Shown piece by piece: positions 14,081 through 16,542 of a DNA stretch of 64,000 nt (positions are counted from its first letter, which is position 1; every line of letters starts with the position of its first letter). The position numbers and the translations under genes were made by a program. The notes beneath the pieces were generated by a model. The model had not been told where the DNA came from. It saw nothing but the letters and a program-made list of their open reading frames with translations, and did no database searches. Location: positions 22,105 through 86,104 of the forward strand of contig CAZYXU010000002.1 of NCBI GenBank assembly GCA_964650945.1. The letters run 5' to 3'. This stretch comes from an uncultured Verrucomicrobiota bacterium. GTDB taxonomy: Bacteria > Verrucomicrobiota > Kiritimatiellia > JAAZAB01.

Positions 14081-15139
14081 TCACCATGCCGGCAAGAATC
14101 CGGCCGCGGTCCATGCCGCCAACCCAATCGCACCGATCGCCATCTGCGCGGGAAGCGCCCGCCGCACCTCCCGGAGCACCCCGGACGGCGATGTAAACGT
14201 GGTTGCCCCGGTGAAGCTGAGCAGCATGTGGGAAGCGCCTGCCGAAACCAGCAGCAGCCAGGCCGCGGAACGCAGCACGGACCAGCCCGGGCCCGCCGCC
14301 CAGATGCCGCAAGCAGCAATCGCAATCCCCAGCCAGGCGCCCTTGATCGAGAACGCGCGCGCCGGCAACCATGGGAGCAGGAGCGGACCGAGGACACCGG
14401 CGAACACATAAGACAAGAACCATAGCGCGAACACCATGCCGCCCGTGTTCCACCCCGTTGACAAGGAGAATCCCTGCGCGGACACGCCGGCCAGCACCGC
14501 GAGCGCCAGGCCGGACAACAGCATCTTCCTGAAGCCGATGACCAGTTCCAATGGCGCCAGGATAAGTCGCTCGTGCCAGCGGAAACGCACGCGGCGCATG
14601 TCAGGGGTGGCTTTGAGGCCCGCCCGCAGGAATGCCGCAATCTCCGCGGCATAGACCGGCCCATAAACCACCGCAAAGCCGGTTTGCTGCTTGACTGCAT
14701 GAGCCGCGACGCCCGGCGCCCCCAGTTGAGGCAGAATGAGACGGCGGTGTGTGACATGATCATGCAGACGGCATTCGTTAACCATGCGGACCAGTTCATC
14801 CGTGCCGAATGTGCCCTTGCCGGCCGCGCACCAGACGTTGATCCCGCGGGTGTCCAGCGCCAGAATCCACGCGTCGATCCCTGCCAGCGAGCGCCGCAGC
14901 AGATCAAACGAAAGCTTGTAGTTCGCCGAAACAAAAACCGGAGCATCCGGCCCGGGCGATCCGCATGCGTATAAGCCCGGGGTCACGCTGTAGCGTGTCC
15001 GGCGGAAGTTCAACCTGACCCCGATGGCGCCAAGATAATCGCCGATAGTCCATTCCGGACCAGCGTGGCCGATGCCATCCACGGGGGGCAAACCAGCAAC
15101 TGGTGCTGGCGCTTGTTCGGCATGAAGGGAACTGTTCAT
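14081..15139 (-). CDS. hgcA: Mercury methylation corrinoid protein HgcA
   Basis: Contains GINVWCAAGKGTF, i.e. the diagnostic N(V/I)WCA(A/G)GK cap-helix motif of HgcA. The N-terminal CFeSP-like corrinoid-binding domain is followed by a C-terminal ~5-TM domain. The hgcB ferredoxin follows immediately. Confidence 0.85.
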   Translation of the reverse strand: MNSSLHAEQAPAPVAGLPPVDGIGHAGPEWTIGDYLGAIGVRLNFRRTRYSVTPGLYACGSPGPDAPVFVSANYKLSFDLLRRSLAGIDAWILALDTRGINVWCAAGKGTFGTDELVRMVNECRLHDHVTHRRLILPQLGAPGVAAHAVKQQTGFAVVYGPVYAAEIAAFLRAGLKATPDMRRVRFRWHERLILAPLELVIGFRKMLLSGLALAVLAGVSAQGFSLSTGWNTGGMVFALWFLSYVFAGVLGPLLLPWLPARAFSIKGAWLGIAIAACGIWAAGPGWSVLRSAAWLLLVSAGASHMLLSFTGATTFTSPSGVLREVRRALPAQMAIGAIGLAAWTAAGFLPAW

Positions 15140-15849
15140 TAAAACGTAGCCAGCAAATAGAATCCCGCGCAGACGAGCAGCACGCCGGCGACGATGCGGA
15201 TCGCGGTCTCCGCTTTTTGCATTTTAATCGCCGCTTTGCCCAGCGAAACACCAAGCAGGATGGCGCCGAGCGGCAGACTGAACCCCACGCCAAAAGCCGC
15301 CATCAGCATCATGCCCCAGAGGATTTTGCCCATCAAGATGCTGGCGCCGATGACGATGAATATTCCGGGGTTGCAGGGCAAAGAGCAGGCGGCCAAACCG
15401 CCCCCAACCAGCAATCCAACCAAAACCGTACCCAGCATCCCTGGGACGGCGGAATGCGATTCCGCCTTGCGCGTGAACCGCGGCAGTTTAACCGGCAGCA
15501 ACTTGAGCGCGGCAAGGCCCAGGAGCACGGCCACGGCGCCCGCAAAGATCTTCCAGTACCGACCGAGCAGCGCCTGGGCGGTCTGCCCCACGAACCCGGC
15601 CACCAACCCGAGGGTAATGAGCGCCAGCGTGGTGCCGATCATGAACGAAATTGCCGACACGCAGGCCGTACGCCGGTTCACATCCTGGCGGGTGCCCGAA
15701 TAGGCCACCAGCATGCCCATGGCCGGCAAGGTGCAACAGGCGCTGGCAATCGCGCTCACCAAGCCCAAGAGGAATGCCAGCGGCAAGGCCATGGCCCCAG
15801 TGCTGGCGGCTTGCAACGTATCGGTAACCCATTTCAGCATTTCCGCCAT
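15139..15849 (-). CDS. ccdA: Cytochrome c biogenesis protein CcdA / DsbD-family thiol-disulfide transporter
   Basis: 236 aa, 6+ TM, with conserved Cys in TM1 (ASACCTLP) and TM4 (ACSLPC) as in CcdA/DsbD-beta. Its stop overlaps the hgcA start (TAATG). Confidence 0.8.
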   Translation of the reverse strand: MAEMLKWVTDTLQAASTGAMALPLAFLLGLVSAIASACCTLPAMGMLVAYSGTRQDVNRRTACVSAISFMIGTTLALITLGLVAGFVGQTAQALLGRYWKIFAGAVAVLLGLAALKLLPVKLPRFTRKAESHSAVPGMLGTVLVGLLVGGGLAACSLPCNPGIFIVIGASILMGKILWGMMLMAAFGVGFSLPLGAILLGVSLGKAAIKMQKAETAIRIVAGVLLVCAGFYLLATF

Positions 15850-15858
15850 GGCACCCCC

Positions 15859-16542
15859 TTAATTGCATCCCGCCGGTCCGCAGCCGGACGGTCCGCACCC
15901 GCCGGCGCTTGACGCGGCAACATATCCCTGGATGAGTTTTGTTTCGGTAATGTCGCCCGACACCGGAATCATCCCGCGGCCCTTGACCATCGCAATCACA
16001 CACGGCACCGCCACTTGCGCGGCAACCTGCGCATAGTCCAGCGAGTCCGTCTTCAGCGTGAAAACACCGATCTTTTGTCCTTGCGCTTCGATCGTCTTCG
16101 CCGCGCTGCGCATTTGCGCCAGGGGGGCCTTCATCGGCGGATCGTTTTTGTCGGCCAGGAAAACAAACACCCCGCCCGTATCGGAGGCCACCGCGTTCAG
16201 TTCGTCGAGCGCGCCGAGTTCTTTTACAGCAACCGTGACAGGGATTGCGGCCGCATCGCCCGTTGCGGGCGCCGCATCGGCTTGAGACGCAGACGCCCGG
16301 CCGGCGACCGGCAAGGCGGCAAAGCCAGACGCCGCGGTAGCGGCCGGGGCGCTGTTGTTTTTCATCACCGCCCGCGCCACCAGCACTCCGGCAGCGAGGA
16401 GAATGACCACACCTGCTATCCAGCGCATGCGACTCGCGGGCACACCGGCATGACAGCCGCAGCCGGGACCGCAGGCCGCAGCCTCCGCTTTCGGCGCTTC
16501 CAGGTTGTTGGTCGGTGTCCAGTCTTCATTTCTTGTGATCAT
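15859..16542 (-). CDS. Membrane-anchored thioredoxin-fold-like protein with Cys-rich N- and C-terminal tails (CGPGCGC ... GGCGPSGCGPAGC)
   Basis: Cytoplasmic N-tail with CGPGCGCH. One TM helix (WIAGVVILLAAGVLVARAV). A ~110-aa domain with a Trx-like secondary-structure pattern but no CXXC. A C-terminal tail with three CGP/CG motifs. 10-nt gap to ccdA. Confidence 0.55.
   Translation of the reverse strand: MITRNEDWTPTNNLEAPKAEAAACGPGCGCHAGVPASRMRWIAGVVILLAAGVLVARAVMKNNSAPAATAASGFAALPVAGRASASQADAAPATGDAAAIPVTVAVKELGALDELNAVASDTGGVFVFLADKNDPPMKAPLAQMRSAAKTIEAQGQKIGVFTLKTDSLDYAQVAAQVAVPCVIAMVKGRGMIPVSGDITETKLIQGYVAASSAGGCGPSGCGPAGCN

Follow-up and report, generated by a model that had tools for sequence, protein, structure and literature searches.

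Two described systems come close to the gene pair reported here. In the MerP-MerT(-NmerA) system, a periplasmic cysteine binder, vicinal cysteines in the first transmembrane (TM) helix and a cytoplasmic cysteine cluster are combined with hand-off to a cytoplasmic enzyme, and the genes lie in a metal-regulated operon together with that receiving enzyme. In CcdA/DsbD-beta proteins and their clients (ResA, CcmG, DsbD-gamma), a membrane protein of the Pfam family DsbD_TM with motif cysteines in TM1 and TM4 is paired with a membrane-anchored thioredoxin-like partner. We analysed a 64,000-nucleotide stretch of DNA from an uncultured Verrucomicrobiota bacterium of the Kiritimatiellia (contig CAZYXU010000002.1, hereafter the window), in which two genes between arsR and the mercury methylation genes hgcA and hgcB encode a single-pass membrane protein from a family without annotation, here called X227, and a CcdA-like protein with six TM helices, here called CcdA1. 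The pair shares the listed features of the Mer proteins in logic only and may have a like function: no sequence or fold relationship was detected, the membrane part belongs to the CcdA/DsbD family, both cysteine clusters sit on one bitopic protein, and the setting is ars/hgc, not mer. Unlike CcdA and its clients, the pair has an extra invariant cysteine that makes a CC in TM1, a partner that lacks CXXC and carries a cytoplasmic cysteine cluster, and no link to cytochrome c maturation genes.

CcdA-fold proteins are known from ars operons. Genes for CcdA, for a thioredoxin and for redox-active disulfide protein 2 (MTH895/ArsE) were described there by Castillo and Saier (2010, PMC2963123), a set that corresponds to a separate triad in the window (18585-20062) and not to the X227-CcdA1 pair. 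The ArsEFG system likewise has a CcdA-fold protein in an ars operon, ArsG, named an efflux permease by NCBIfam, but CcdA1 scores below the cutoff of the ArsG model, X227 corresponds to neither ArsE nor ArsF, and one locus (L162) has the module as well as a true ArsG. ArsD resembles X227 in its thioredoxin-type fold without CXXC, its As(III)-type cysteine triplets and its cysteine-rich disordered C-terminus; it differs in being soluble and cytoplasmic, the X227 of the window has no ArsD domain, and ArsD has no detectable homology to the X227 domain. Genes for HgcAB flanked by arsR, acr3, arsC and arsM, including Kiritimatiellae in which arsR precedes hgcA, have been reported (PMC7438021, PMC11984097, bioRxiv 10.1101/2022.10.17.512643), with no mention in these three papers of two genes between arsR and hgcA. 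A literature search for hgcA with DsbD or CcdA, for ArsD fusions and for ArsEFG returned no description of the pair and no link between hgcA and DsbD/CcdA, in agreement with an earlier reading of the locus from the sequence alone (the sequence-only reading), which was aware of no such module in hgcAB loci. X227 and CcdA1 make up a real and conserved module of two genes, which belongs to soft-metal(loid) islands under ArsR regulation and apparently has not been described. We give a probability of about 0.45 to the reading that the module moves As(III) and/or Hg(II) through the inner membrane from one cysteine cluster to another, as a Mer-like relay on a CcdA scaffold.

Cysteine clusters of X227 and CcdA1

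The open reading frames (ORFs), their coordinates and the overlap of the ccdA stop with the hgcA start were found as the sequence-only reading had described them. X227 and CcdA1 are indeed closely adjacent, at a distance of 9 nt and not of 10 nt as had been given: the gap (gggggtgcc) follows the X227 stop codon (15861-15859) and is preceded by a purine-rich stretch resembling a ribosome-binding site. All four parts that had been assigned to X227, the CGPGCGCH tail, the single TM helix, a folded domain and a cysteine-rich C-terminal tail, are present (Table 1), and an Ala/Pro-rich linker joins the TM helix to the domain. AlphaFold2 (AF2), run with the family alignment, predicts a confident domain over residues 106-212 with thioredoxin topology (predicted local distance difference test, pLDDT, 84-91 over most of 121-210). 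The domain contains no CXXC, and the loop corresponding to the active site (DKNDPPMK) has no cysteine, which agrees with the proposed thioredoxin-like fold without CXXC. Residues 106-212 can thus be assigned to the thioredoxin superfamily by predicted fold, and not by CXXC or by a thioredoxin sequence profile; a search of the domain profile against PDB sequences returned nothing meaningful. The CGP repeats of the tails, which had been taken to echo the thioredoxin active site CGPC, probably resemble it by coincidence, the tails being disordered Gly/Pro/Cys repeats outside the fold. Derivation of the domain from a diverged ArsD was rejected (HHalign profile-profile probability 0.5%), and so was the MYXO-CTERM sorting-signal label that two homologs bear in JGI records: the X227 tail ends in ...GCGPAGCN without a terminal hydrophobic helix, and no NCBIfam model matched.

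X227 has no match in Pfam or NCBIfam, and the family has no curated model. It comprises 725 homologs in a 90%-clustered collection, or 407 representatives at 50% identity, all of them unnamed or "hypothetical"; the members with named sources are metagenome-assembled genomes of the PVC group and its allies (Kiritimatiellota, Verrucomicrobiota, Lentisphaerota and Planctomycetota, with a few candidate phyla allied to them). When 21 diverse homologs are aligned, C24, C28, C30 and C216 are invariant and C221 is nearly so, and in 268 family sequences inspected the N-tail follows the consensus CGPGCxC and the C-tail consists of a variable number of (GCGPx)n repeats ending in GC[NK]. Because these cysteines and motifs are kept across the family, the cysteine features of X227 are not due to chance, and the cysteine-rich termini belong to the orthologs as well as to the window protein.

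CcdA1 falls into the DsbD_TM superfamily (PF02683 DsbD_TM, 43.5 bits against a cutoff of 27.1; PF13386 DsbD_2, 41 bits against 24.9). It carries, as CcdA proteins do, a cysteine in a Pro-containing motif of both TM1 ('ACCTLP') and TM4 ('LPCNP'), and in TM1 a second invariant cysteine adjacent to the first. The three residues are C38-C39 (nt 15733-15738) in 'SACCTLP' and C159 (nt 15373-15375) in 'SLPCNPG'; among 76 orthologs from related loci the TM1 pair is 99-100% conserved and the TM4 cysteine 99%. The second CcdA of the window, CcdA2, has by comparison the canonical single cysteine per motif (SPC, GPC). CcdA1 is a member of the DsbD_TM superfamily but no ordinary CcdA. Within TM helices, vicinal or CxC cysteines are a typical trait of soft-metal permeases (MerT, MerF, ArsP) and not of redox pairs. 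The protein is unusually conserved, with 78-100% identity among its best 120 matches, and its homologs go in public records only by the names "cytochrome c biogenesis protein CcdA" or "TauE/SafE". Its best NCBIfam match is the ArsG efflux-permease model NF040495, with 40 bits where the cutoff is 200, which leaves it outside ArsG; a search against the PDB found no solved relative by sequence. In an AF2 model of low confidence (pLDDT 53) the helix breaks coincide with the CC and PC motifs. Neither X227 nor CcdA1 matches MerT or HMA/MerP in Pfam and NCBIfam, and neither matches there any characterised family from outside thiol or metal chemistry; such a match would have told against the sequence-only reading.

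In 13 of the 148 best X227 representatives (~9%) a genuine N-terminal domain of the arsenite metallochaperone ArsD (PF06953, E 1e-36 to 1e-45) is fused directly ahead of CGPGCxC. In the protein P0267 only the first 25 ArsD residues are left, comprising the CCxxxxC As(III)-binding site, and they stand where the CGPGCxC tail would be. This swap argues that CCxxxxC and CGPGCxC may be functionally equivalent, and together with the fusions it would tie the X227 N-tail to the binding of As(III), which in ArsR and ArsD is held by three thiolates. Since ArsD is cytoplasmic, where it passes As(III) to ArsA, its fusion to the N-tail of X227 would place that tail in the cytoplasm and, with one TM helix, the thioredoxin-like domain and the C-tail in the periplasm. 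The X227 of the window itself has no ArsD match in Pfam and is not a member of that family.

Gene neighbourhoods of the pair and of hgcA

We mapped 80 PVC genome loci encoding X227 relatives, using the window proteins and recurrent neighbours; 25 of them have at least 6 kb of sequence on both sides. CcdA1 lies directly downstream of X227 in 77 of the 80, with a gap of less than 120 nt in 67. Of the 80 loci, 72 carry one or more ars structural genes, and the counts for single genes are 69 for ArsR (upstream of X227), 59 for ACR3, 55 for ArsC and 39 for ArsM. The gene just 5' of X227 is mostly an AhpD-like CxxC protein (36/80) or ArsR (24/80). The intact AhpD-like gene encodes ~90 aa and matches TIGR00778; in the window a stub of it is left, and the alignment attributes this to an internal deletion of ~220 bp that the window has in common with L003, relative to L017. 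The gene just 3' of CcdA1 is mostly one of three: a heavy-metal ATPase of the P1B type that has no N-terminal metal-binding domain in 23 loci (TIGR01525, 578 bits; CPC motif present), ArsD followed by ArsA in 19 (NF033727 and TIGR04291, both above cutoff) and ACR3 in nine. The X227 N-tail might act as an in-trans metal-binding domain for the P1B ATPase.

The genes hgcAB were found in the available flanks of 19 of the 80 loci, and within 10 kb in nine of the 25 fully flanked ones. They follow CcdA1 at less than 100 nt, as in the window, in five loci (L003, L017, L018, L029, L039); in four of these and in the window the start of hgcA overlaps with the stop of CcdA1, and in L029 it lies 33 nt downstream. 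In eight of the 19 loci hgcAB stand upstream of X227, and in the remaining six elsewhere downstream, among other places after ACR3 or the ATPase and once, in L007, between X227 and CcdA1. Because of these counts and of the varying position of hgcAB, the pair in the PVC group belongs to the core of an arsenic/soft-metal island in which hgcAB are a frequent, optional guest. The co-occurrence with ars and hgc genes that the sequence-only reading had proposed to look for is thus borne out, and a module dedicated to HgcAB, as it had suggested, does not hold for this lineage.

For the reverse comparison, 80 metagenomic hgcA loci were fetched with a PVC HgcA profile, a broad sample with matches of 41-54% identity. 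X227 itself occurs in one of them (L094), and any version of the module in about eight. A distant CcdA1-like gene (27-43% identity) lies just upstream of hgcA in L095, L109, L112, L113, L116, L131 and L135, and just downstream of hgcB in L132, where the order is reversed and the small protein has the tail GCGCVGGCGSGCK. At least 1.3 kb of upstream sequence is available for 57 loci, which include six of the seven upstream cases. The distant CcdA1-like proteins also carry extra cysteines, in TM1 as SCC or CAC and in TM4 as CCNP or CxxxCNP. Directly 5' of their genes, in all five loci with complete upstream sequence (L112 and L113 end at the contig edge), a small cysteine-rich single-pass protein is encoded. 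In the reduced module as a whole, these small proteins have 74 to 124 aa, cysteine clusters on either side of the TM helix and no thioredoxin domain; those of L095, L131 and L135 (78-100 aa) follow the pattern MENQN..DCGCSDGCCTPxKK..W-[TM]-..KCCDK......CCPQSK, and that of L109 has 124 aa. The version in L116, of 249 aa, has a thioredoxin-like domain homologous to that of X227 (HHalign probability 96%, E 1.8e-9). The small proteins have no match in Pfam and NCBIfam, share with X227 the TM core I-[IL]-L-A-A-[AG], and have an N-flank more basic than the C-flank, which fits an N-in orientation. Because these reduced forms keep the cysteine clusters without the thioredoxin-like domain, that domain is dispensable.

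A profile of the distant CcdA-like proteins found 890 relatives at E <= 1e-15, with source names mostly of Bacteroidales, Bacteroidota and Lentimicrobiaceae, and the context of ten of them, on long contigs, was looked up. Nine of the ten, in a sample whose search profile had been seeded from hgcA-adjacent genes, have the order [arsR] - small ORF (74-95 aa, 249 aa in L164; no Pfam match) - CcdA-like - HgcA - HgcB, the HgcA of L161 scoring 425 bits. Five of the nine have housekeeping genes around them (gyrB, ribosomal proteins, EF-Ts, dnaG) and no ars genes in the vicinity. The order is interrupted by a Fic gene in two and by a cation diffusion facilitator (CDF) gene in one; the Fic/RhuM-domain genes, between the CcdA-like gene and hgcA, are at 5709-6686 in L167 and 5708-6691 in L169, both of termite-gut-type Bacteroidota. 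One hgcAB operon has a rhodanese-thioredoxin fusion directly 5' of the small cysteine-tailed ORF (L168, 4005-4721). In the tenth look-up, L162, ArsM (357 bits) takes the position of HgcA, and an organoarsenical cluster comes after the module (5716-9351: ArsM, ArsF, ArsF, true ArsG at 293 bits, and an ArsE-ArsM fusion). Because L162 encodes both, the CcdA-like protein of the module is a paralog distinct from ArsG. In Bacteroidota the reduced form is an integral part of hgcAB operons. What appears from the sequences to be constant across both clades is a cytoplasmic cysteine cluster, a TM helix followed by an external cysteine cluster, and a CcdA-like protein with supernumerary motif cysteines. 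PVC forms have three cysteines at each of the three sites and Bacteroidota forms four, a hint at most, since L109 and L116 fit poorly.

A candidate metal(loid) relay and its alternatives

In the Mer-like relay that we favour, the first station would be the periplasmic cysteine-rich tail on a redox-inactive thioredoxin-like domain, the second the three CcdA1 cysteines where the helices TM1 (CC) and TM4 (C) break, exposed alternately to each side, and the third the CGPGCxC tail of X227 in the cytoplasm. As(III) or Hg(II) would pass between the stations by ligand exchange, and the cytoplasmic tail would exchange it with ArsD (and then ArsA/ACR3), with ArsM, or with HgcB/HgcA. We arrive at this reading because of the extra cysteines, the ArsD fusions and the substitution by the ArsD site, and the adjacency to ArsD/ArsA, to an ATPase without metal-binding domain, to ArsM and to HgcAB. 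As for direction, we incline to an inward, Mer-like transfer that ends at cytoplasmic enzymes, because export would leave a passive relay of thiols without an energy source, while the cytoplasm is rich in thiols and holds the consuming enzyme; the link to ArsD in an ars context could equally indicate export. An inward relay matches the idea in the sequence-only reading of a module that feeds HgcAB, and the shuttling of Hg(II)/As(III) thiolates across the membrane, also raised there, fits the ArsD fusions, the extra invariant CcdA1 cysteine and the reduced pairs upstream of hgcAB in Bacteroidota. Altogether the observation on which that reading was built stood, and of its interpretation the metal(loid) module gained support and the dedication to HgcAB in the PVC group did not.

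Several points weigh against the relay. To our knowledge, the CcdA homologs characterised to date carry electrons and not metals, and an As(III) importer in a resistance island would be counter-intuitive unless tightly coupled to detoxification. What is said here of the pair's function, from metal binding and topology to transport, is read from genomes. The AF2 model of CcdA1 is too poor for judging the proximity of the three cysteines, and one family member, P0261, joins ArsD to the thioredoxin-like domain without a TM helix, so that its domain would be cytoplasmic. About 86% of the hgcAB loci with enough upstream sequence have no version of the module, and because of this majority it is not essential for methylation; the figure of nine in ten among the Bacteroidota look-ups is biased and overstated for the wider clade.

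The main rival, which we consider doubtful, keeps CcdA1 in its classical role. It would move reductant from a cytoplasmic thioredoxin outward to X227 as a dedicated periplasmic substrate, whose reduced tail would sequester As(III)/Hg(II) or repair metal-damaged thiols, and no metal would cross via the pair. CcdA1 does pass the DsbD_TM and DsbD_2 models and keeps cysteines at both canonical CxxP/PCxP positions, X227 has the architecture of a usual client (N-terminal anchor, linker, thioredoxin-like domain), in which it is built like the TM-anchored thioredoxin that is paired with CcdA2 in the window, and an earlier proposal (Castillo and Saier, PMC2963123) gave the CcdA/thioredoxin genes of ars operons a function in redox chemistry. 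Against this stand the lack of CXXC in X227 and the reduced forms without any thioredoxin domain. The classical role also gives no part to the cytoplasmic cysteine tail, to the fusion with or substitution by ArsD, or to the extra invariant cysteine of the CC pair, it leaves the adjacency to HgcAB or ArsM without a reason, and the hosts, as anaerobes, would need little reductive upkeep of periplasmic thiols. An ordinary CcdA of cytochrome c maturation (System II) beside an unrelated neighbour, as the public annotation of homologs ("cytochrome c biogenesis protein CcdA") would have it, is effectively refuted: the partner is kept in 77 of the 80 PVC loci, CcdA1 has its extra invariant cysteine, X227 has no CXXC, and every recurrent neighbour in the 80 loci is an ars, hgc or metal gene, none of them for cytochrome c maturation, an outcome that on this point also spares the sequence-only reading.

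The ArsD fusions and neighbours, ArsD normally feeding As(III) export, lend themselves to a further reading, in which CcdA1 would be an ArsG- or ArsP-like efflux permease for As(III), methylarsenite (MAs(III)) or methylmercury (MeHg), with X227 collecting inside, from ArsD, and receiving outside. The ArsG model as best NCBIfam match, the resistance-island setting and the adjacency to enzymes with products, MeHg and MAs(III), that the cell has to release are in its favour. We nevertheless regard export as unlikely, given the ArsG score far below cutoff and the true ArsG that L162 has besides the module gene, which mark the two as distinct paralogs; no energy coupling is evident for uphill transfer into a thiol-poor periplasm, sites of three or four cysteines would be a better match for As(III) and Hg(II) than for mono-thiolate MeHg+, and ACR3 and ArsP are already encoded at these loci. 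Still less probable is a module made for HgcAB, feeding it Hg(II) or protecting it, whose presence in ars islands would be secondary. The junctions between CcdA1 and hgcA (overlapping in the window, L003, L017, L018 and L039, 33 nt in L029), hgcAB within 10 kb in nine of the 25 fully flanked PVC loci, and the Bacteroidota-type clade, where nine of ten sampled modules are directly upstream of hgcAB and five of these without nearby ars genes, speak for it. That sample was seeded from hgcA-adjacent genes, however, and in the available flanks of 61 of the 80 PVC loci, including 16 of the 25 that are flanked on either side by 6 kb or more, the pair occurs without hgcAB; where hgcAB are present their position varies (after the pair, before it, after ACR3 or, in L007, between its two genes), the ArsD fusions speak for arsenite, and L162 has ArsM in place of HgcA.

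Operon layout and implications

The operon of the window starts at arsR, likely from the sigma-70-like promoter ahead of it, and ends with acr3 (Table 1). The CcdA1 stop (TAA, 15141-15139) and the hgcA start (ATG, 15139-15137) share one base in TAATG, and junctions that overlap or span 1-13 nt throughout, in the window as in the Bacteroidota-type loci, suggest co-translation. The promoter before arsR and the hairpin after acr3 fit a single ArsR-controlled transcript, from which the module would be transcribed along with hgcAB, arsP, arsC and acr3.

Table 1 Features of the pair, its operon and further genes (positions in the window unless a locus is named)
Feature	Position	Strand	Basis or remark
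Promoter, sigma-70-like, TTGACG-16-TATATT, TG extended	17075..17102	-	upstream of arsR; consensus match alone
arsR, ArsR/SmtB metalloregulator, operon gene 1	16676..17059	-	HTH_5 59 bits; NF033788 94.5 bits vs cutoff 55
AhpD-like (CMD) gene stub, 22 codons, MPDELDERTYALIASGAAIGAQ and stop	16556..16624	-	alignment with L017 and L003
X227, 227 aa, single-pass membrane protein, unannotated family	15859..16542	-	ORF and homologs
X227 N-tail cysteine triplet CGPGCGCH, residues 24-31	16450..16473	-	probably cytoplasmic
X227 single TM helix, residues 41-60	16363..16422	-	AF2 helix 40-60; hydrophobic stretch conserved
X227 thioredoxin-like domain without CXXC, residues 106-212	15907..16227	-	probably periplasmic
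X227 C-terminal Gly/Pro/Cys tail, GGCGPSGCGPAGCN, three Cys	15862..15906	-	Cys conservation and repeat pattern
CcdA1, CcdA-like 6-TM protein	15139..15849	-	DsbD_TM and DsbD_2
hgcA, corrinoid protein	14081..15139	-	NF040863 382 bits vs cutoff 275; cap-helix motif GINVWCAAGK
hgcB, ferredoxin, Cys-rich C-terminus	13720..14073	-	NF040864 109 bits vs cutoff 99
arsP-family permease	12661..13704	-	PF03773 191 bits
arsC, arsenate reductase of low-molecular-weight protein tyrosine phosphatase type	12133..12588	-	named by similarity to related-locus ArsC with PF01451
acr3, ACR3 arsenite efflux permease, last operon gene	10919..12136	-	ORF and homologs
Terminator-like hairpin	10613-10636		3' of acr3
CDF transporter, divergent	17210-18169	+	
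DUF6951	18192-18524		second thiol module
CcdA2, canonical CcdA	18585-19286		second thiol module
TM-anchored CIPC thioredoxin	19332-19832		second thiol module
MTH895/ArsE-type thioredoxin	19829-20062		second thiol module
RND-type efflux pump subunit, 1036 aa	20059-23169	-	upstream
ArsR and ArsP-like permease, further pair	about 25.6-27 kb		tblastn; ~5.6 kb past MTH895 gene
P1B ATPase or ArsD-ArsA after CcdA1, examples	L006 11670-13568; L004 3190-5136; L042 4927-6813; L027 2507-2845		

Other products of the operon have cysteine features of their own. HgcB ends in a cysteine-rich stretch, SCCGEGGCCCAS...ACGS, and in the ArsP-family permease three vicinal cysteine pairs (GGCCSS...GGGCCSG...SKCCS) lie in a long loop, besides FCSCS in a TM helix. 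The HgcA start on the CcdA1 stop codon leaves no space for an N-terminal CU/CC extension, which most HgcA proteins have (Haft, bioRxiv 10.1101/2022.07.06.499078). On the other side of arsR, the window holds a second thiol module of an MTH895/ArsE-type thioredoxin, a TM-anchored thioredoxin, CcdA2 and DUF6951, accompanied by a divergent CDF transporter, a subunit of a resistance-nodulation-division (RND) type efflux pump and a further ArsR-ArsP pair. This second module co-occurs with the X227 pair in ~30 of the 80 PVC loci.

The pair bears on two questions in mercury methylation, how Hg(II) reaches the cytoplasmic HgcAB and what HgcAB originally did. Uptake of Hg(II) appears to be energy-dependent and coupled to MeHg export (McDaniel et al., PMC7438021). 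A conserved membrane pair lined with cysteines, probably coupled in translation and present in two distant bacterial groups, is a testable candidate for metal hand-off, and because in one eutrophic lake Kiritimatiellae accounted for ~65% of the abundance of hgcA genes (PMC11984097), it is a candidate in an environmentally dominant group of methylators. In the PVC group, islands of arsenic resistance gain in the pair a further component, one that had no annotation and that occurs with ArsD fusions, and the pair suggests an adaptation of the CcdA scaffold from electron transfer to metal(loid) handling. A more far-reaching idea, which we put forward with considerable doubt, is that the module is the missing membrane route of mercury methylation, bringing periplasmic Hg(II) or the native soft-metal(loid) substrate of HgcAB to HgcB/HgcA; the same relay would feed ArsD and ArsM in ars islands, and the ancestral operon would have been arsR - cysteine-tailed protein - ccdA-like - hgcA - hgcB. 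If this were true, the native function of HgcAB would be tied mechanistically to the handling of arsenic-type metalloids.

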